From positions 1-33,342 of IMG/VR virus record IMGVR_UViG_3300045988_104900: a DNA stretch of 33,342 bases. One strand, 5' to 3'. Below the pieces are notes generated by a model, which ran no database searches, was not told the origin of the DNA, and saw nothing but the letters and a program-made list of their open reading frames with translations. The translations under genes and the position numbers were made by a program. Origin of the DNA: a virus. This document shows positions 2,446 through 26,463 of this stretch, piece after piece. Every line of letters starts with the position of its first letter. Within the stretch, counting starts at the first letter, position 1.

Positions 2446-2865
2446 TTGCTATACGAAGAATACGAGGAGTATAAAAGTAGATATTACGAAGCACAAAGAA
2501 TATATAACGATATTTTAAACGAAAAAGAAGAATTATTCACAAAGACACAGCCTAAAGCAACCAAGATAACTGGAGAAAAGACAGGCGGAGGCAAGCACGA
2601 AAATTTATTTGACGAGTATCTGATCCAGAAAGAAAGAAAAAACATAGATAAGAGACTAGAAGAAGCAAAGTCTATCCTAGACGATAGAGAAAGGCTTTTA
2701 AAACTAAAAGAAGTGGAGTTAAGAGCCAGTAAGCATAGCCACGACAAAATATACAGATGCAGATATATAGATAGACTTACAATAGAAAAGACAGCTAGAT
2801 TATCAAACTACAGCCGAAGCCAAGTATTTAATATTTTAAAAGATATCAGGAAGAAAATAAAATAG
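2446..2865 (+). CDS. Sigma-70 region-4-like HTH protein (candidate late-gene activator, ArpU/RinA/Xpf-type)
   Basis: TTG start after AGAGGTGA. C-terminus IYRCRYIDRLTIEKTARLSNYSRSQVFNILKDIRKKI looks like a sigma region 4 HTH (recollection). Confidence 0.5.
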   Translation: MLYEEYEEYKSRYYEAQRIYNDILNEKEELFTKTQPKATKITGEKTGGGKHENLFDEYLIQKERKNIDKRLEEAKSILDDRERLLKLKEVELRASKHSHDKIYRCRYIDRLTIEKTARLSNYSRSQVFNILKDIRKKIK

Positions 2866-2873
2866 GAGGAAGT

Positions 2874-3068
2874 ATGGAAGGAGAATATTTAAGTCTAGAT
2901 ACGGCTAAGAAGATAGCAGAAAAAGACAAAGAAATAGAAAAACTAAATAATATTATAAATGAATTAGAAAAATATATAAGAAGTAATGAATGGGGAATTG
3001 ACTATGAACATAGTAATTGTAGAACTCATTTATTAGATATTCTAAAAAGAAGTAATGATAATGGATAA
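2874..3068 (+). CDS. Hypothetical early protein, LLEIL C-terminal family
   Basis: SD TAGGAGGA. C-terminus HLLDILKRSNDNG. Confidence 0.65.
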   Translation: MEGEYLSLDTAKKIAEKDKEIEKLNNIINELEKYIRSNEWGIDYEHSNCRTHLLDILKRSNDNG

Positions 3069-3258
3069 CAGAACAATAGAACAAATAAGAGATAATGAAA
3101 CAAAATTAATCAAGGAATTACAACAAAAAGAAAACATAATAAAAGAAGTTAGAGAATATATAAAAGAAAGTTGTTATGATTATGATTTTGATACATATAG
3201 CAATATGACAAGTGATGAAGTTAAAGAACTTTTAGAAATATTAGACAAAGGAGAATAA
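3055..3258 (+). CDS. Hypothetical early protein, LLEIL C-terminal family
   Basis: C-terminus ELLEILDKGE. Ends in the AAAGGAGAATAAGT junction. The start could instead be ATG 3061. Confidence 0.6.
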   Translation: MIMDNRTIEQIRDNETKLIKELQQKENIIKEVREYIKESCYDYDFDTYSNMTSDEVKELLEILDKGE

Positions 3259-3260
3259 GT

Positions 3261-3467
3261 ATGAGTGAAGATAAAAAAGAAACATTAGGATTTATATTAT
3301 TATTTGTAATAATGGTAGGTGGAATGATTTTAATAGTATTTGTAGATAGTTGGCAAAATGGTTTTAAAACTAATAGACAAATATGTGAAGAAAATGGTGG
3401 TGTTTATATAGAAGATTTATCTGCACATAATCAAAATAAATGTATATATGGTATGAAAGGAGAATAA
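3261..3467 (+). CDS. Small membrane protein
   Basis: Junction SD AAAGGAGAATAAGTATG. TM segment LGFILLFVIMVGGMILIVFV. Confidence 0.65.
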   Translation: MSEDKKETLGFILLFVIMVGGMILIVFVDSWQNGFKTNRQICEENGGVYIEDLSAHNQNKCIYGMKGE

Positions 3468-3469
3468 GT

Positions 3470-3733
3470 ATGAAACATTGTGATTTATGTAAGAATAAAA
3501 AAAATATGAATTGTCCTAATAGTGCAGAGTGTTATAACAATGCTGATAGACCTTATTTTCAAGATAAATATTTATATACTAGAATATCTTTTATAGACAA
3601 GATTAAATTATTATTTAAGAAAACTTATATAAGTGTAGATACAACACCATATTTTAGAAGCAAGTTATACTATAAGATTTTACACAACAACATATATGTA
3701 ATAAAAGAAGTTTTAGAAAGCAAAGGAGAATAA
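3470..3733 (+). CDS. Cys-rich small protein, 87 aa (possible zinc finger), last gene before the late leader
   Basis: ATG 3470 follows junction SD AAAGGAGAATAAGT, preferred over the track's 3440. N-terminus CDLCKNKKNMNCPNSAEC. Confidence 0.6.
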   Translation: MKHCDLCKNKKNMNCPNSAECYNNADRPYFQDKYLYTRISFIDKIKLLFKKTYISVDTTPYFRSKLYYKILHNNIYVIKEVLESKGE

Positions 3734-4108
3734 GTGAAAAGCAGGTAAAAATAGGTGAGAACTTATAACATTGGACTAAATTAGACTTTTTTAGTGAGAT
3801 AATAGTAGTGTGAAATAATACATAAAAAGAAAAAGCTATCCTTACAGGTAGCATAGAGTAGATATACCTAGTATTGCATTGTGAAGTTTAGAGACCTATT
3901 ACGAGGGACATATAAGTCAATACATATAGGGAATGAAAGTTCATATTTGATAGGTCAAGAATGACTAATTCTATATCTATTCTATGGTACTTATAAGAGT
4001 ACCTAGCATAGCACCACAAACAGACACGAACGGTGGAAGACAGCGACAAGCTGTCTAGAGGGTATATTTTTTTCATATTCTTTATGTATCCTCTAGAGAG
4101 CTTATCAG
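3734..4108 (+). promoter_or_regulatory. About 375 nt with no credible ORF; hairpin-rich leader upstream of the lysis and late genes
   Basis: Stops in all + frames. Hairpins include gcta(t)cc/ggtagc about 3835-3852, gacctat 3893-3899 with ataggtc 3950-3956, ggtact/agtacc 3986-4003, and agacagc/gctgtct 4038-4056. Candidate extended -10 TGaGATAAT at 3795-3803. Confidence 0.45.
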
Positions 4109-4131
4109 AAGACTAGCAATAGTCTTTTTTT
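4109..4131 (+). terminator. Rho-independent terminator directly upstream of the holin
   Basis: Stem agacta/tagtct with a gcaa loop, followed by 7 T (4125-4131). Confidence 0.7.
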
Positions 4132-4150
4132 ATTGCAGAAAGGAGGACTT

Positions 4151-4360
4151 ATGATACTAAATAATAAAGTTTTTACAGTATTAAAGTGGATCTTAGCAAC
4201 AGCAGTAGCACCTACAATAGCCTTAATTACAGGACTAGGAGAATTATATAACTTTGATGCAACTTTAATAGTAGGGACTATTTCATTAGTAGCTACATTC
4301 TTAGGAGCATTACTAGGAGTATCAAATTATAACTATCAAAAAGAGAAGGAGGATAGATAA
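4151..4360 (+). CDS. Holin (SPP1/LL-H phage_holin_1-like)
   Basis: ATG 4151 after AAAGGAGG. NNKVFTVLKWILATAVAPTIALITGLGELY...GTISLVATFLGALLGVS matches the holin_1 pattern. Sits upstream of the endolysin. Confidence 0.75.
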   Translation: MILNNKVFTVLKWILATAVAPTIALITGLGELYNFDATLIVGTISLVATFLGALLGVSNYNYQKEKEDR

Positions 4361-4361
4361 G

Positions 4362-4892
4362 ATGCTTGAAATATGGAGAGATATCAAAAATTATGAGGGA
4401 ATATATGAAGTCAGTAATTTAGGAAGAATAAAAAGTATTTCAAGAAATGGAACTATCAAAGAAAATAGAATATTAAAGCCTAATAAAGTAATGGGATATA
4501 GCCAAGTAGGGCTACAAAAGTACGGAACTAGAAAATATAAAAAAATACATAGATTAGTAGCCGAAGCATTTATACCTAACCCAGAAAACAAGAAAGAAGT
4601 TAATCATAAAGACGGAAATAAGACTAATAATTGCGTAGATAATCTAGAATGGGTAACAACTAGCGAAAATCAGTTACATTCTTATTACGAATTAAAAAAT
4701 AATATTAAATCAGTTATACAACTATCATTAAATAATGAAATTATTAAAGAATGGGAAAGTATAGCTAAAGTAGAACAAGAATTAAAAATATCAAATGCGG
4801 ATATATGCAAGTGCTGTAAAGGTAAAAGAAAAACAGCAGGAGGCTATAAATGGAGATATAAAGAAAATATAGGAGGTATGATATTATGTTAA
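4362..4892 (+). CDS. Free-standing HNH homing endonuclease (NUMOD4 plus HNH_3 type)
   Basis: EIWRDIKNYEGIYEVSNLGRIKS (NUMOD4), HRLVAEAFIPNP...NHKDGNKTNNCVDNLEW (HNH), C-terminal GGYKWRY. Paralogue of 16469..16951 and 28754..29281. Confidence 0.85.
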   Translation: MLEIWRDIKNYEGIYEVSNLGRIKSISRNGTIKENRILKPNKVMGYSQVGLQKYGTRKYKKIHRLVAEAFIPNPENKKEVNHKDGNKTNNCVDNLEWVTTSENQLHSYYELKNNIKSVIQLSLNNEIIKEWESIAKVEQELKISNADICKCCKGKRKTAGGYKWRYKENIGGMILC

Positions 4893-5866
4893 AGGGACTA
4901 GACCTTAGCCATTGGCAAAGTAACTTTGACGCATTTAACAGCGTAGACTTTGCAATAATTAAAGCTACAGAAGGAGTAGGATATAAAGATCCAGCATTCG
5001 ATACTTTATATCAAAGAGCTAAAAACTCAGGTAAATTATTAGGAGTATATCACTTTGCTAGACCAGATCTAAATAATAGTGCAGTAGCAGAGGCAGACTG
5101 GTTTATTAAAGTAGTAAGACCTTATGTAAGAGAAGCTATTCTAGTATTAGACTGGGAAAGCGGATATCTAGGTAATGTAGCGTGGGCTAAAGCCTTCCTA
5201 GATAGAGTAAGAGAGCAAACAGGAATAAAAGCATTATTATACGCTAGTAGAAGTCCTATTAATTCTTTTAACTGGAGTAGCGTAGCAAACGCAGACTACG
5301 GACTATGGGTAGCAGACTACGGAGCTAATACAGGCCAAGAATGTACTAAGCCAGTAGTTAAGTGGTGGCCTTTTTATATTCTATGGCAATATACTAGCAA
5401 AGGTAGAGTAGCAGGATATAACGGAAACGTAGACTTAAATAACTTCTATGGAGATGCGGAAACGTGGAGAAAGTACGCTACGTCAGAAAGTAACCCAGCA
5501 CCTACACCAGCTCCAGAGCCAGCTAAGAAGACTAACGAGCAACTAGCAGAAGAAGTACTAGAGGGCAAATGGGGAAACGGAGAAGAAAGAAAGAAAAGAC
5601 TAACAGATGCAGGCTATAACTATCAAGCAGTACAAGATATAGTAAATGCTAAACTAGGAATTAATAAGAACGAGATAAAAGTAGGTACTAGAGTAAAGAC
5701 AGTAAAAGTAGGAAACGGAGCTAGTGACGGATCAGGTAATAGGGCAAGATCAGGAATAACAGGAACTATTACAAGAATTATAGACGGAGCTAAGTATCCA
5801 TATCTAGTATCTAATGGGAATACACCTATAGGCTGGTACAAGAAAGAAGCGTTACAAATTGTATAA
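4886..5866 (+). CDS. Endolysin: GH25 muramidase, Cpl-7 (CW_7) repeat, SH3-like C-terminus
   Basis: GLDLSHWQ...IIKATEG...GVYHFARP (GH25). PAPTPAPEPA linker. LEGKWGNGEERKKRLTDAGYNYQAVQDIVN (Cpl-7-like). Confidence 0.9.
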   Translation: MLKGLDLSHWQSNFDAFNSVDFAIIKATEGVGYKDPAFDTLYQRAKNSGKLLGVYHFARPDLNNSAVAEADWFIKVVRPYVREAILVLDWESGYLGNVAWAKAFLDRVREQTGIKALLYASRSPINSFNWSSVANADYGLWVADYGANTGQECTKPVVKWWPFYILWQYTSKGRVAGYNGNVDLNNFYGDAETWRKYATSESNPAPTPAPEPAKKTNEQLAEEVLEGKWGNGEERKKRLTDAGYNYQAVQDIVNAKLGINKNEIKVGTRVKTVKVGNGASDGSGNRARSGITGTITRIIDGAKYPYLVSNGNTPIGWYKKEALQIV

Positions 5867-14520: not shown

Positions 14521-14871
14521 ATGAAAGATAATGCAGGAAAAGTAATATATAAAGAAAAAGAATATAAAGTAGTATTTAATTTAAACGTAATGGAAGCTAT
14601 CCAAGAAGAATACGGAACACTAGATAAGTGGACGGAATTAACTTCAGGAGCTAATCAAGAAGTAAACGTAAAAGCGTTAAAGTTCGGATATACTAAGATG
14701 CTAAACGAAGGACTAGAAATAGAAGCAGAAGAAAAAGGCGAAGAATATAAGCCAGTAACTCCAGCCTTCGTAGGTAGAATGCTTACAGATATCGGACTAG
14801 AAAATATGACAAAAACATTACAAGATACAGTAATCGAAAGTACAAAGACAGACGAAGGAAAAAACGCATAA
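14521..14871 (+). CDS. Tail assembly chaperone (G-like)
   Basis: Position between the major tail protein and TMP. Slippery heptamer near the 3' end. Confidence 0.75.
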   Translation: MKDNAGKVIYKEKEYKVVFNLNVMEAIQEEYGTLDKWTELTSGANQEVNVKALKFGYTKMLNEGLEIEAEEKGEEYKPVTPAFVGRMLTDIGLENMTKTLQDTVIESTKTDEGKNA

Positions 14872-15110
14872 TTCCTGATATAATCGAAGGAGAAGAAAGT
14901 AAGCCTATAGACTTTACTTTCTTTTATTATATCGGGAAAACTAAACTAAATTTATCATTTAAAGAAACTGGAAAACTAACATATAGACTATTTAGTAAAC
15001 TATATCAGCATTATAAAGATAACTTCGATTTAGAATTACAAATGAAAATAAAAAATGTAACATATGGAGAACTATATAATAGACAACAAGAAGCGGACGA
15101 ATGGTTTTAA
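14521..15110 (+). CDS. Tail assembly chaperone -1 frameshift fusion product (GT-like)
   Basis: After a slip at A_AAA_AAC (14859-14865) the -1 frame is open for 81 codons (KKRIIPDIIEGEESKPIDF...EADEWF) to TAA 15108-15110, checked codon by codon. Confidence 0.7.
14859..14865 (+). promoter_or_regulatory. Programmed -1 ribosomal frameshift slippery site A_AAA_AAC
   Basis: X_XXY_YYZ heptamer in the zero frame (gg-a aaa aac), 2 codons before the G stop. Confidence 0.7.
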
Positions 15111-15139: not shown

Positions 15140-15157
15140 ATGTTCCACGTGGAACAT
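15140..15157. promoter_or_regulatory. Perfect 18-bp palindrome ATGTTCCACGTGGAACAT upstream of the tape-measure gene
   Basis: Self-complementary by inspection. Preceded by A7, so on the - strand it reads as a hairpin plus T7. Confidence 0.4.
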
Positions 15158-15174: not shown

Positions 15175-16157
15175 ATGGCTAGCTTCGGAGGATCAATAAA
15201 ATTAACAGGAGCAGACGAGTATAAAAGTGCTTTAAAGCAAATAACACAAAGTCTAAGAGAAACAGGATCAGAACTAACAGCAGTAGCTAGTAGATATGAT
15301 AAAAACGATAGTTCTTTATCTACATTAAAGGCTAAAACTACCGAAATGACAGGAGTATTAGCTAAACAAAATCAAGCCTACCAGCAATTAAAGAGTGCAT
15401 ATGATAGCTTTAGTGCTAAAGTAAGCCAACAAGCACAGGCACACGATAAACTAGTTCAAACATACGAAAAAGAAAAGCAAGAATTAGAAAATATTCGTAA
15501 GGCATCTGGAGAAAGTTCACAAGCCTTCCAAGATCAACAGGCTAAAGTAAACGACTTAGCAACCGCAGTAGCTAAAAGTTCTCAAAATATGAATGAGAAC
15601 GAGATAGCACTAAGTAAAATGAAGACACAATTAAATCAAGCGGAAGCATCAGTAAATAAAACAACTAAAGAAATAGACGAGCTAGGAAATGAAACAGAAG
15701 AAAGCGGAAAAAAAGCCGAAAAATCTGGAGAAGGATACACAGTATTTAAGAATATTTTAGCTAATTTAGGTACACAGGCTATTAATAGTGCTATAAATGG
15801 ACTAAAAAACTTAGGAAGTGCTTTCGTAGACGTAGGAAAACAGGCTTTAAATAGCTATGCTAACTACGAACAGCTAACAGGTGGAGTAGAAACTCTATTC
15901 GGAGAAAGTGCAAAAGTGGTAGAAGGCTATGCAAACGAGGCTTATAAGACAGCAGGACTAAGTGCTAACGAATATATGGAGACTGTTACTTCTTTTAGTG
16001 CATCAATGTTACAAAGTCTAGATAATGATACTCAAAAATCGGCAGAATACAGTAATAGAGCTATTATAGATATGTCAGATAACGCTAATAAAATGGGTAC
16101 TAGTATGGAAATGATCCAAAATGCCTATCAGGGCTTCGCTAAACAAAATTATACGAT
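15175..16157 (+). CDS. Tail tape measure protein, exon 1
   Basis: Coiled-coil N-terminus. Ends within the conserved ...IQNAYQGFAKQNYT motif. The unspliced frame hits TAG at 16174-16176. Confidence 0.75.
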
Positions 16158-17007
16158 AAATTTAATGTCGGCTTAGTTAGTGATAACTAGGTCAGCGTAT
16201 GTGAACTCTACCAGAGGTGTGGGAATAACGATAAAGTTTTTATAGGAAATGATAAATTAATATTCCTGCTAACTGGGGAAGCCTAAGTCTTAAAAAAAGA
16301 TATGGTTATCCAGTGCCAAGCCTAGAAATAGGAAGGTCAAACGACTATGAGTTCGTTACTCAGTACGGTATCTATTGGTACGATATCGGAAGTGCATACT
16401 ATCTCAAACAAAAATATCTATCTTGCAAAAGTTTCGGTAAGTGATATAATATTACTAGGAGGTAATATATGGAAACTTTTAAAAAGATAGAAGAATATCC
16501 TAATTACTCAGTAAGTAACTTAGGAAATATAAGAAATGATAAAACTGGAAGAATATTAAAACAATATACTAAGCCTAGCGGATACAAACAAGTACAATTA
16601 GGGCGTAATACAACGCCACAGTACGTACATAGGTTAGTATGTAAAGCATTTATACCTAATAAAGAAAATAAGCCACAAATAAACCACAAAAACGGTAATA
16701 AAGGCGACAATAACAAAGATAATCTAGAATGGGTAACAGCTAGAGAAAACGACTTAGCATACGGTTATACTTCTAGAGTAGAAAATAGAAAGAAAAAAAT
16801 AATAGCAATTAATAAAAATGGAGAAAAAATAATATTCAATTCCAGAAATGAAACAGCCGAATATTTTAAGTGTCATAAAAGCCAAATATCATACGGAAGA
16901 TATTACACTAAAGGAAATAAAAAAGGCTGGAAATTTGAGATAATGATATAGTCTAAACCCACTCCTAAACGAGTGTTAAAGTATCGTGAAAACGAGGGTA
17001 GAAATTG
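16158..17007 (+). mobile_element. Putative group I intron (850 nt) carrying an HNH homing-endonuclease ORF
   Basis: Interrupts a contiguous TMP motif. 5' exon ends in U16157, pairable as CGAU/GUCG (16154-57 with 16167-70). Intron ends in G17007. About 310 nt of stop-rich, hairpin-rich sequence precede the HEG. Confidence 0.65.
16469..16951 (+). CDS. Intron-encoded HNH homing endonuclease (NUMOD4 plus HNH_3)
   Basis: Own SD GGAGG 16458-62. IEEYPNYSVSNLGNIRN...HRLVCKAFIPNKENKPQINHKNGNKGDNNKDNLEW. Confidence 0.85.
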   Translation: METFKKIEEYPNYSVSNLGNIRNDKTGRILKQYTKPSGYKQVQLGRNTTPQYVHRLVCKAFIPNKENKPQINHKNGNKGDNNKDNLEWVTARENDLAYGYTSRVENRKKKIIAINKNGEKIIFNSRNETAEYFKCHKSQISYGRYYTKGNKKGWKFEIMI

Positions 17008-18445
17008 GTTAGATAATTTAAAATTAGGCTACGGTGGTACTAAAGGCGAAATGGAGCGACTAATAGCAGATGCAAATAAAGTAAAAGAAGCTAACGGAGA
17101 AATGGCTAACCTATCTATAGACAGTTTCGCAGACGTAACAGAAGCAATACATATAATTCAAACAGAAATGGGTATTACAGGTACAACTTCTAAAGAAGCA
17201 AGTACAACTATAGAAGGATCTGTAAAATCTATGAAGTCAGCATATCAGAACTTTTTAACAGGACTAGCTAACGGAAATGCAGATATGGGAAAATTAATGC
17301 AAAACTTAGTAGATAGTGTACTAACAGCAGGAAATAATATATTACCAGCAATAAACCAGATAGCACAAAGTATTATAGACGTATTACCACAAATATTAAA
17401 TAGTATTATAGAAGCACTACCACAGTTCTTAGAAGCAGGTACAAATATTTTAAATACTTTAATAACAGGTATTCAACAAAATATGCCAGCTATAATGCAA
17501 GCAGTATTAACTATAGTAACTACAATAATAAATACGATCCTACAAAACCTACCACAAATATTACAAATGGGTATCCAAGTAATAGTATCATTAATACAGG
17601 GAATAGCACAGCAATTACCTACATTAATACCACAAATGGTAGAGACAGTATTAACAATGGTAGAAACTTTAATAGATAATATAGATTTAATAATTGACGC
17701 TGGAATACAACTACTAATAGGACTAGCAGAAGGACTAATAGAGGCTTTACCACAGTTGATAGATAAAATACCTATCATAATAGATAAATTAGTAACAGCT
17801 ATCGTAAATAACTTACCTAAATTAATCGAAATGGGTATAACTTTAATAGTTAAACTTGCAGAAGGACTAATAAAAGCTATACCTCAATTAGTAAGTAAAA
17901 TACCTCAGATTATTAGTTCTTTAGTAAATGGAATTATAAGTTATTATGGAAAACTATTTAGTATAGGTGGAAATTTACTAAACAAAGTAAAAGACGGAAT
18001 AGTATCAGGAATAGGAAAACTAGCAGACGTAGGTAAAAACTTAGTACAGGGCTTATGGAATGGTATTAATAATGCTAAAGACTGGGTATTAGGTAAAATA
18101 AAAGGTTTCGGTAAATCTATCTTAAACGGAATTAAAGGAATATTCGGTATTCACTCACCTTCTACAGTATTTAGAGATCAAGTAGGAAAGAACTTAGCAC
18201 TAGGACTAGGTGAAGGTTTCGAGGACGAAATGAAAGAAGTTACTAACGAGATGCAAAACGCAATACCTACAAGTTTCGATACAGACGTAAACATAGGAAG
18301 TAATAATATTGCATCAGGAAGTAGCAATTATTATAGTATGGTAGATGCATTTAAAGAAGCACTAAGCGAAATGAAGATAGAACTAGACGACGAAGTAGCT
18401 GGACGCTTCGTAGAAACTACCGTAACAAACGCTATATATAACTAG
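17008..18445 (+). CDS. Tail tape measure protein, exon 2
   Basis: Resumes (M)LDNLKLGYGGTKGEMERL. Long hydrophobic-repeat region. at(16156-57)+g(17008) makes ATG and keeps the frame. The spliced product would be 806 aa. Confidence 0.75.
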
Positions 18446-25043: not shown

Positions 25044-26387
25044 TTAGTAGAAAATAACTTTTATATTATAATCACTATCTACGTGTATTTCTTTTATTAA
25101 ATTACGCCAAAAAGTACGCTTGTTTTCTCTATTCATAATATCGTAACCATTTCGCCAACCACTAGATAAAAAAGCCGTCAGAGGAGCTGTATCTATTTTT
25201 TTAGAAGGACATAGTTTTAAGGCTTTTATTTTATTTTCTATTTTTTCATATAGACGGTCATACTCAGCAACAGATATACGTTTTTTCATAAAAATATAAT
25301 TTAAGTTATCTAGCTCAGCACGTAAGGACTTTATTTTTTTATCAGTATTTACACTATTAGTAGGCTCAATAGATTTTATATAAGCTATACGATTTGATAC
25401 TAAAATATCTATATTTTCTAGTAGATATTTTTCTATCAAGTTTTCATTGTAGTTTTTTTTCTCAGTACATAATTTAGAAACATAATGCTTATTACATCGA
25501 TAATAATAGTAATAACTACCTTTATATAGATTATTGCTACCAGCGAGCAAGTTATTACACTTAGGGCAACAAACTAGACCACTAAATATATAAGTAACTT
25601 TTTTATCACTAGCCTTTATATTTTTAGAGATAAGTTCCTGTATTTTATCGAAAGTATCACGATCTATGTATGGATCAACATAATTATTATTACTTCGATA
25701 CGTACCAGTATATATTTCGTTTTTTAATAATTTACTATAGACTTGGTAACTTTTACGTATATCATATTTTTTATTTATTAAATCGGTAACTAAACGGATA
25801 GACTGATATTTTAGAAAGTAATTAAAAATATCTATAACTATAGGAGCTTCGTCTTCGTCTTTAACTAGACGTTTTATACCATTTATAGTAGCTATTTTAT
25901 AACCGAAGGCAGTAACTCCAGATATAACCTGCCCTTCTTTTACTTTATATTCAAATACAGAGCGAATTCGTTCCGACGTTTTTTTAATTTCACGTTCAGC
26001 TAGCGATACCTTTAAATTAAACATAAAAAGCCCGTCGGCATCAGTAGTATTGATATCTTCTTCTTCTATAGCTATCATACTAACATTATTTTTTTGTAAA
26101 GTATCTAGCATTTTATTAGCTTCTAATACATTACGGGAAAACCTATCTAAGCGAGTAAAGACTATAGCATCTATTTTATCTAAGCTATTAAATAGATCCA
26201 GAAGACGAGGGCGTTTCATATTAGAAGCAGTAAAGCCTTCGTCTATATAAATATCTACAAGCTGATAATTTTTCAATTCACAATATTTTTTTATTTTATC
26301 TACCTGAGCTTCTATAGAGTATCCGTACTTTTTTTGTTCTTCGTGAGATACCCTAGCGTATCCGCCTACACGTATAATTTTTTTCAA
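25044..26387 (-). CDS. int: Large serine recombinase (integrase)
   Basis: GGYARVSHEEQ resolvase catalytic motif, recombinase domain, CCPKCN...YYRCNKH zinc ribbon. TTG 26387 lies 8 nt after GGAGG (26400-26396), preferred over the track start 26402. Confidence 0.9.
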   Translation of the reverse strand: MKKIIRVGGYARVSHEEQKKYGYSIEAQVDKIKKYCELKNYQLVDIYIDEGFTASNMKRPRLLDLFNSLDKIDAIVFTRLDRFSRNVLEANKMLDTLQKNNVSMIAIEEEDINTTDADGLFMFNLKVSLAEREIKKTSERIRSVFEYKVKEGQVISGVTAFGYKIATINGIKRLVKDEDEAPIVIDIFNYFLKYQSIRLVTDLINKKYDIRKSYQVYSKLLKNEIYTGTYRSNNNYVDPYIDRDTFDKIQELISKNIKASDKKVTYIFSGLVCCPKCNNLLAGSNNLYKGSYYYYYRCNKHYVSKLCTEKKNYNENLIEKYLLENIDILVSNRIAYIKSIEPTNSVNTDKKIKSLRAELDNLNYIFMKKRISVAEYDRLYEKIENKIKALKLCPSKKIDTAPLTAFLSSGWRNGYDIMNRENKRTFWRNLIKEIHVDSDYNIKVIFY

Positions 26388-26463
26388 AAAGAAAACCTCC
26401 AATGTTTACAAATAGAAAATAAAGTACATAATATTACTAACTTTTTAGAAAGGAGTAATAAAA

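Follow-up and report, generated by a model that had tools for sequence, protein, structure and literature searches.

A probable group I intron with an HNH homing endonuclease gene of its own, inserted in the tape-measure gene of a temperate siphophage

In the siphophage genome held in the IMG/VR virus record IMGVR_UViG_3300045988_104900 (positions 1 to 33,342; this whole stretch of 33,342 nucleotides is called the window below), the gene of the tape-measure protein (TMP) is most probably interrupted by a group I intron, located at positions 16158-17007, with a gene for an HNH homing endonuclease in its interior. We assign this reading a probability of about 0.93. An intron of this kind had been suggested in a preliminary description of the DNA, made from the letters alone, and the suggestion is now supported by the exon junction, by a covarying fold resembling that of subgroup IA2, by the homology of the encoded protein to I-HmuI, and by the existence of copies of the element without the open reading frame (ORF).

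Results

The interrupted tape-measure gene

The TMP gene begins with an ORF that has an ATG start (15175..16176) that ends with the TAG codon at 16174-16176; downstream, the TMP frame picks up again in a third frame, in a long ORF reaching 18445. Fusion of the segments 15175-16157 and 17008-18445 generates a single ORF of 806 amino acids, with a methionine codon assembled at the joint (AT/G; here and below a slash marks a junction). The spliced nucleotide junction predicted from the sequence is ...AAUUAUACGAU/GUUAGAUAAU..., and the protein across the joint reads …FAKQNYT-M-LDNLKLGYGGTK…, a stretch that is unbroken in uninterrupted homologues. No other joint in the neighbourhood is equivalent: 16157/17008 alone yields ...ACG ATG TTA GAT..., and a shift of either boundary by one base loses the frame or the motif.

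Both flanking ORFs match TMP profiles of the PHROG database, and the matches are contiguous over the gap. In phrog_3981 the first piece ends at position 168 and the first residue of the second piece falls on 169; in phrog_991 the corresponding positions are 477 and 479. Exon 1 is also matched by phrog_6900 (tape measure; E 1e-65). The location of the gene, between that of a tail chaperone (upstream) and that of Dit (downstream), together with the contiguous profiles, identifies it as the TMP gene.

A query of 172 amino acids spanning the junction retrieved 5,270 proteins at E ≤ 1e-10, and many among the 120 best listed cover 100% of it. The sequence ...QGFAKQNYTMLDNLKLGYGGTK... is uninterrupted in 13 aligned homologues, in which M68, L69 and D70 (query numbering) at the joint are invariant; the break bisects the TMP motif that is conserved best. 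When the phages deposited in GenBank that contain this motif were inspected, the motif was unbroken in 366 of 381 records, where at least 80% of the query across the junction lay within a single match. The interrupted state is therefore a minority state, and a derived one.

The preliminary description had reported the TAG codon in the TMP frame and its later resumption, the in-frame joining of U16157 to G17008 into an ATG codon with a product of 806 amino acids, the uniqueness of this junction, and the continuity of one TMP motif across it. The ORF list with TMP profiles on both sides, the spliced translation and the comparison of exon 1 plus exon 2 with uninterrupted homologues bear out all of these statements. 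U as the last exon base and G as the last intron base are likewise confirmed.

Introns at the same codon in other phages

A megablast comparison of the TMP region with GenBank phages gave three weak matches, which nevertheless provided the key leads: Lactococcus phage 38502 matches over the exon-1/intron boundary, and Streptococcus phage Str-PAP-1 matches the intron core and the ORF. In both GenBank entries two coding sequences named "tape measure" are annotated, with an "HNH endonuclease" in between. An initial core pattern (P6 to P7) proved too generic, as it returned >120 stretches from many phage introns; a longer pattern, J6/7-P7-P7.1-P7.2-P3', isolated the family, in 26 viral contigs and 7 genome contigs.

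The core is shared by 36 loci. For 30 of them the positions of the two splice sites could be established, and in all 30 they fall at the same TMP codon (CARAAYTWYACNAU/A...G/GUURGAYAA). These 30 introns form three size classes: ORF-less (313-316 nucleotides, nt), remnant (377-388 nt), with 33-70 nt left in the P8 loop (e.g. loci L124, L145 and L153), and ORF-bearing (about 819-883 nt). The ORF-less copies (~314 nt, with in-frame stops) interrupt the identical codon and have P8 closed by a 4-nt loop, which is direct evidence that the ribozyme lacks nothing when the ORF is absent. From these copies it is also apparent that in the window P8 (UAUCUC/GAGAUA) closes around the ORF; in all long members P8 encloses the ORF in this way, although its sequences differ considerably. 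In the long intron of locus L136, the HNH match is limited to residues 70-160, and this ORF may be decaying. Loci L124, L145, L153 and L136 resemble successive steps of a homing cycle in which the endonuclease gene decays. Four allele states coexist: intron-less, ORF-bearing, deletion remnant and ORF-less.

The nucleotide similarity (72-83%) of the window to the other intron-bearing phage contigs compared is confined to ~15833-17295, i.e. to the intron with ~325 nt upstream and 66-290 nt downstream. An island of this shape fits a mobile element with putatively co-converted flanks; strong conservation of the protein encoded by the flanks could be an alternative cause, as the island overlaps the best-conserved motif of the protein. 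The contigs of the lineage are attributed to Lactococcus, Streptococcus, Oscillospiraceae, Faecalibacterium, Lachnospira and Collinsella. The core is also found, besides Firmicutes, in contigs from bins of Candidatus Saccharibacteria and of Collinsella (Actinobacteria) (L150, L152), which reflects either a very wide phage-borne spread or binning errors.

Proposed fold of the intron

Sixteen diverse members of the family were aligned with MAFFT after removal of the P8-loop insert from the long introns, and the group I structure was written onto the columns (Table 1). The model comprises 83 pairs in 19 helices. In the alignment 96.8% of the cells are paired, compared with 32.8-41.6% in controls that had the 3' partners slid along by 1-3 columns; changes on both sides occur in 40 of the 83 pairs (5-13 for slid partners), and the covariation score is 0.427 (0.045-0.089 for slid partners). 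In the row of the window itself none of the 83 pairs is broken. Covariation is observed in P2, P3, P3.1, P3.2, P5a, P7.1, P7.2, P8 and the GAAA hairpin, and the comparison as a whole recovers a conserved P3-P8 core, with the P3/P7 pseudoknot, and a P4-P6 domain. The core junction sequences AACGACUA (J6/7 to P7) and GAUAUAGUCU (J8/7 to P7') are the same in the window and in the 15 other aligned members, and they align to the consensus of the Rfam group I model RF00028 (Intron_gpI) with high posterior probability.

The sequences at the splice sites agree with those expected of a group I intron. The last base of the 5' exon, U16157, forms a wobble with G16167 in P1, and the last intron base is omega-G17007, a terminal G invariant across the 16 aligned members. 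The pairing of CGAU (16154-57) with GUCG (16167-70), put forward in the preliminary description as P1, works in the window; family-wide it can be refined, since position 16170 varies (G, C or U). What is conserved is the pair of C16154 with the invariant G16171, with 16170 bulged, plus the intron pair A16158-U16166. In P10, five pairs were counted (16161-16165 with 17009-17013), of which the inner four are paired in 93.8% of cells and the outermost in 31%.

The presence of P7.1 and P7.2 between P7 and the 3' strand of P3 is a hallmark of subgroup IA in the classification of Michel and Westhof, and the intron is placed in this subgroup on that ground. Between P3 and J3/4 there are two extra hairpins, P3.1 and P3.2. 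The P3.2 loop AGGAAAUG (16244-51), which may be a tertiary-contact element, is common to 13 of the 16 aligned members, namely those with the inner stem, and the stems below it covary; the clade of Lc38502, Str-PAP-1 and L134 has a shorter hairpin without the AGGAAAUG loop. P3.1 as such is a known optional pairing (PMC3873408). Two placements of the 5' strand of P3, just upstream of J3/4 (as in RF00028) and on the conserved GGUGUG, were rejected: the covariation between 16197-16203 and 16393-99 is perfect, and the bases adjoining J3/4 make up a local covarying hairpin, which counts against a P3 strand there. Also rejected was an alternative register of P3.1 with a 4-nt loop, which is broken in the window. 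A sub-clade (L135, L138, L146, L152) carries a ~30-45-nt insertion in the P6a loop, replacing the GAAA tetraloop.

Rfam searches were informative only when run permissively on short stretches. For 16050-17100 the two best matches were both to Intron_gpI, one on each side of the ORF: P4-P6-J6/7-P7 at 16272-16347 (20.7 bits, E 0.0096) and J8/7-P7'-P9 at 16853-16976 (17.7 bits). The ORF-less relative L048 gave a full-length alignment to RF00028 (positions 1-253) with 48.6 bits (E 1.5e-11), 1.4 bits short of the cut-off of 50. The model search that had been proposed as a check on the intron thus returned two sub-threshold pieces in the window itself and a full-length match, slightly under the cut-off, in an ORF-less relative.

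The endonuclease gene

The ORF in the P8 loop (525 nt) encodes a protein in which both domains exceed the Pfam cut-offs: HNH_3 (PF13392) with 46.2 bits (cut-off 24.8) and NUMOD4 (PF07463) with 44.9 bits (cut-off 23.4). Its sole homologue of solved structure is I-HmuI of the SPO1 intron (PDB 1U3E; E 7e-12, residues 5-127), and the HNH motifs align as ...NHKNGNK...NLEWVT... (window) and ...DHKDGNK...NLRWVT... (I-HmuI). A NUMOD4/HNH ORF with its own Shine-Dalgarno sequence, preceded by a less AT-rich segment, was part of the preliminary description, and both features hold: the first 311 nt of the intron have 35.0% G+C, compared with 28.8% in the ORF and 31.5% in the whole window. Homologous ORFs are present in all other long family members (39-81% amino acid identity), whose ribozymes show 67-86% nucleotide identity to that of the window.

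The 3' end of the ORF overlaps P8-3', J8/7 and P7-3', and its stop codon lies within the 3' strand of P7. Because of this overlap, translation of the end of the ORF by a ribosome would presumably be in competition with core folding on the same RNA molecule.

Table 1. Coordinates of the TMP exons, the putative intron with its helices and gene, and loci with introns in the same TMP motif
Feature	Position	Strand	Description or evidence
TMP exon 1	15175..16157	+	327 codons + AT of junction Met; ORF list, PHROG profiles, spliced translation
TMP exon 2	17008..18445	+	G of Met codon + 478 codons + stop
Probable group I intron, IA2-like, 850 nt	16158..17007	+	Rfam partial matches, same-site homologous introns, covariation; endonuclease ORF in P8 loop
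P1	16154..16171	+	exon CGAU + A16158 with U16166-C16169 and G16171 (or G16170); helix 1, 97.5% of cells paired
P10 guide UUUAAU	16161..16166	+	pairs with first 3' exon bases GUUAGA 17008-17013; G17008·U16166 left out of the count, U16166 being already in P1
P2 hairpin	16172..16191	+	8 bp, GUGA tetraloop 16180-16183; helix 4, both-side changes in 5/7 counted pairs; closing pair C16172-G16191 excluded from the count, three rows being out of register
P3 5' strand	16197..16203	+	pairs with 16393-16399, pseudoknot with P7; helix 5, 100% paired, both-side changes in 3 pairs
P3.1 and P3.2, extra hairpins between P3 and J3/4	16206..16266	+	helices 6-8
P3.1	16206-16216	+	covariation
P3.2	outer stem 16222-27/16261-66, inner stem 16239-43/16252-56	+	covariation
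P4-P6 domain	16272..16337	+	Rfam alignment to model positions 60-148; helices 9-13
P4; P5; P5a	16272-77/16309-14; 16282-83/16304-05; 16287-91/16297-16301	+	within P4-P6 domain
P6; P6a	16315-17/16335-37; 16321-24/16329-32	+	within P4-P6 domain; GAAA loop in P6a
P7 5' strand GACUAU	16343..16348	+	preceded by J6/7 CAAAC; pairs with 16948-16953; fits RF00028 consensus; helix 14, invariant
P7.1 (16349-61) and P7.2 (16367-87)	16349..16387	+	helices 15 and 16, 100% and 99% paired; 2 and 5 pairs change on both sides
P3 3' strand	16393..16399	+	helix 5
P8 5' strand	16400..16408	+	pairs with 16934-16942; helix 17, both-side changes in 4/6 pairs
Candidate expression signals of endonuclease gene	16423..16462	+	TTGCAA, 16 nt, TG-n-TATAAT (16423-16450); Shine-Dalgarno AGGAGG 16457-16462
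HNH homing endonuclease gene, 160 aa, NUMOD4 + HNH_3, I-HmuI-like	16469..16951	+	Pfam, PHROG HNH families, PDB 1U3E
P8 3' strand (16934-42), J8/7 AUGAU (16943-47), P7 3' strand AUAGUC (16948-53)	16934..16953	+	Rfam partial match + alignment; ORF stop TAG 16949-51 inside P7 3'
P9 region	16958..17007	+	CCC 16958-60 with GGG 16996-98 (invariant); hairpin 16960-75; omega-G 17007
GAAA-tetraloop hairpin, P9 region	16984-95	+	helix 19, both-side changes in 4/4 pairs
Hotspot locus L002 (Str-PAP-1)	2830-4723		
Hotspot locus L042	~7560-6990	minus	
Hotspot locus L054	3660-4925		
Hotspot locus L154	1725-2003		
Hotspot locus L155			

Other introns in the same TMP motif

Among relatives of the phage, the TMP motif DMSDNANKMGTSME...QNYTMLDNLKLGYGGTK is a multi-site intron hotspot, with three or more sites in addition to that of the window: DMSD/NANKMG (L054), NKMG/TSME (Str-PAP-1 intron 1) and LKLG/YGGTK (L042, L054, MissG1 and IPP23). 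In some phages two introns with different endonuclease genes reside in one TMP gene. Intron 1 of Str-PAP-1 and the introns of MissG1 and IPP23 exceed the RF00028 gathering score (82.1, 69.4 and 64.3 bits, respectively), and that of MissG1 is already annotated as a non-coding RNA in GenBank. Like the intron of the window, these three are group I introns in homologous TMPs, no more than ~40 codons from its site; unlike it, they occupy other insertion sites (NKMG/TSME, LKLG/YGGTK) and belong to other intron lineages, one of them with a differently annotated "homing endonuclease" ORF.

Phage context

The window represents essentially the whole genome of a temperate siphophage, encoding an endolysin, the large terminase, the major head protein, a tail protein, the TMP, Dit, further tail proteins and a serine integrase. 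The last of these (a serine recombinase/integrase, 25044-26402, minus strand; phrog_95, E 5e-101) indicates that the phage is temperate. It appears that the window is a complete genome in circularly permuted form, in which the endolysin gene (4886-5866) lies upstream of the terminase gene. The same ~33.3-kb contig is present in a human-gut metagenome, in two assemblies, one from Logan (ERR1136705) and one from ENA (SAMEA3664502), with the TMP called as two genes.

At the end of the tail-chaperone ORF (14521..14871) there is a canonical −1 slippery heptamer, A_AAA_AAC (14859-14865), and the −1 frame (14775-15105) is open for ~110 codons, ending just before the TMP start. This looks like the usual G/GT frameshift of tail-assembly chaperones, missed by ORF lists. 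The A/T-rich spacer immediately 5' of the TMP start contains a perfect 7-bp palindromic hairpin, ATGTTCCACGTGGAACAT (15140-15157), flagged as terminator-like on the minus strand.

Discussion

Proposed splicing and mobility

In the mechanism that we propose, the late transcript would fold into a ribozyme in which an external guanosine attacks after U16157, held in P1 by the U·G wobble with G16167. The freed 3'-OH would then attack after omega-G17007, with P10 aligning the 3' exon, and ligation of the exons would create the ATG codon, so that the spliced message could be translated into one TMP of 806 amino acids. The endonuclease would be expressed from its own Shine-Dalgarno sequence and promoter-like site. 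By analogy with I-HmuI, the enzyme may, when phages co-infect a cell or a phage meets a prophage, nick or cut TMP alleles that lack the intron, close to its insertion site, and repair would copy the intron, together with neighbouring exon sequence, into the cut alleles. The splicing and catalysis, the activity and target of the endonuclease, and homing are all predicted here from the nucleotide sequence and its relatives. Indirect signs of homing are the side-by-side occurrence of intron-less, ORF-less and ORF-bearing alleles and the restriction of the shared DNA island to the intron with its flanks.

Arguments against the intron and alternative explanations

Several points weigh against the interpretation of 16158-17007 as a group I intron. 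No match to RF00028 at the gathering score (50) was found in the window, and four ORF-less relatives likewise yielded nothing at this score. The exon contributes just 4-5 pairs to P1, and some members (e.g. L152) have a weak P10 or none. P7, P6 and the CCC/GGG pairing are invariant in the family and hence uninformative for covariation. None of 500 shuffles matched the observed values on four of five measures, a significance that is inflated by the relatedness of the 16 aligned sequences, so that the slid controls and the counts of both-side changes are the safer measures. The promoter-like site matches the consensus at 10 of 12 positions and has the TG, and a promoter scan of the region found 15 matches where 13.4 are expected, i.e. 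no more than chance; the endonuclease promoter is accordingly a suggestion, a consensus-level candidate. Finally, the evidence consists of sequence, and it is from sequence that splicing is deduced. As to Rfam, the low RF00028 score of the window fits the presence of 525 inserted nt in the P8 loop and of the P3.1/P3.2 insertion, which RF00028 pushes into the P2 and P3 positions of the model; the cut-off is a detection threshold and no defining biological feature.

A free-standing HNH gene might instead have landed between two halves of the TMP gene that are now expressed as separate proteins, with no splicing. In favour of this, gene callers and GenBank annotators give the pieces as separate coding sequences, and free-standing HNH genes are common in phages (PMC10448857). 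We consider this extremely improbable. The ~314-nt copies, which lack the ORF, contain in-frame stops and break the identical codon, rule out a free-standing HNH gene between two TMP proteins; moreover, the non-coding flanks of the ORF make a covarying group I fold, and the break cuts the most conserved TMP motif midway. The second piece has no ATG start, and its sole upstream in-frame start codon (GTG 16973) lacks a Shine-Dalgarno sequence and is located inside P9. More distant still are an intein, a group II intron and translational bypassing, all of which are able to interrupt phage genes; the chance that any of them is present here is vanishingly small. An intein needs a continuous frame, but the frame of exon 1 stops at 16174-76, five codons into the insert; there is neither a reverse-transcriptase ORF nor a group II match in Rfam; an insert of 850 nt is far too long for bypassing; and the RNA fold is specifically that of group I.

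A different possibility is that the element is a decayed group I intron which no longer splices, the TMP gene then being a pseudogene of a defective prophage. Homing-cycle theory predicts eventual decay, the relative L136 matches just residues 70-160 of the HNH protein, and the splicing capacity of the intron in the window is, as stated, deduced. Nonetheless, we regard such decay as very unlikely in this phage, in which every modelled pair is intact, the core junctions are identical to those of 15 other members, the HNH ORF is full-length with an HNH_3 domain that aligns with I-HmuI, and the remaining structural module is intact. The recovery of the same ~33.3-kb contig from a gut metagenome in two assemblies also speaks against a defective prophage.

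Comparison with known introns

The intron of the window may be compared with several known systems. The IA2 introns of Staphylococcus phage Twort orf142 (tail tube) presumably have the same core layout, i.e. J6/7, P7 GACUAU, P7.1, AGUA-, P7.2, P3', P8 and J8/7 GAUAUAGUC, and we take them to be without the P3.1/P3.2 insertion. The structure and catalysis of the Twort intron have been solved experimentally. Its host gene is likewise a tail structural gene, though a different one. The DNA-polymerase intron of Bacillus phage SPO1/SP82, with I-HmuI/I-HmuII (PDB 1U3E), is also a phage group I intron with an HNH endonuclease, of which the ORF of the window is a direct homologue; it differs in its host gene, and the nicking and homing of I-HmuI, predicted for the window, are experimentally proven, as cited in PMC3706429 (its ref. 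12). The lysin intron of Streptococcus thermophilus phages resembles our case in being, as far as it is cited in PMC5601072 (Foley et al. 2000), a widespread group IA intron with full-length and deletion forms at one site, and is distinguished by its host gene.

Group I introns of subgroups IA1 and IA2 have been described at three TMP sites (IVS1-3) in prophages of the Bacillus cereus group (Tourasse & Kolstø 2008; PMC2504315). They share with the intron of the window the temperate Firmicutes phages, the occurrence at several TMP sites, the presence/absence polymorphism and some copies without a complete endonuclease gene (PMC2504315), but they occur in other hosts and in another TMP family, with TMPs of over 1200 amino acids, and HNH is not mentioned in PMC2504315. 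In vibriophage ICP1 the TMP is spliced from four exons, as determined by RNA-seq and RT-PCR, and endonuclease genes of the HNH-3 type are located in the introns (Barth et al. 2023; PMC10448857), where the TMP gene is called "frequently interrupted". As in the family described here, endonuclease content varies (between ICP1 isolates) while the splice junctions are kept (PMC10448857); ICP1 differs in its Gram-negative host, in having three TMP introns, and in that its splicing is experimental whereas that of the window is predicted. Group I introns in TMP genes, including those with HNH-3 genes, are therefore already known as a kind. Among the papers that our search covered, none dealt with Str-PAP-1 or with the particular intron lineage or site of the window.

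It is possible, although we would put it at slightly less than an even chance, that the introns described here constitute an uncatalogued, site-specific IA2-like lineage, defined by the P3.1/P3.2 insertion, the AGGAAAUG loop in 13 of 16 members and an I-HmuI-like gene in L8, which has spread through TMP genes and is missed by standard Rfam. In that case the DMSDNANKMG...LKLGYGGTK motif (~40 codons) would be a four-site hotspot in gut and dairy Firmicutes phages.

Significance

The value of the finding lies chiefly in annotation and cataloguing; it is no conceptual advance and opens no new question. For the phage of the window, as for dozens of relatives, annotation splits the TMP into two proteins flanking an "HNH endonuclease", which gives wrong protein lengths, and TMP length is commonly used for estimates of tail length. 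The single Rfam group I model misses the lineage at its curated threshold, and many annotations of phages would be put right by a covariance model built for the family. For the biology of these elements, the TMP introns provide another well-populated case of homing elements that hit an essential structural gene where it is conserved most, and all stages of the homing cycle, from intron-less through ORF-bearing alleles to deletion remnants and ORF-less copies, can be seen.

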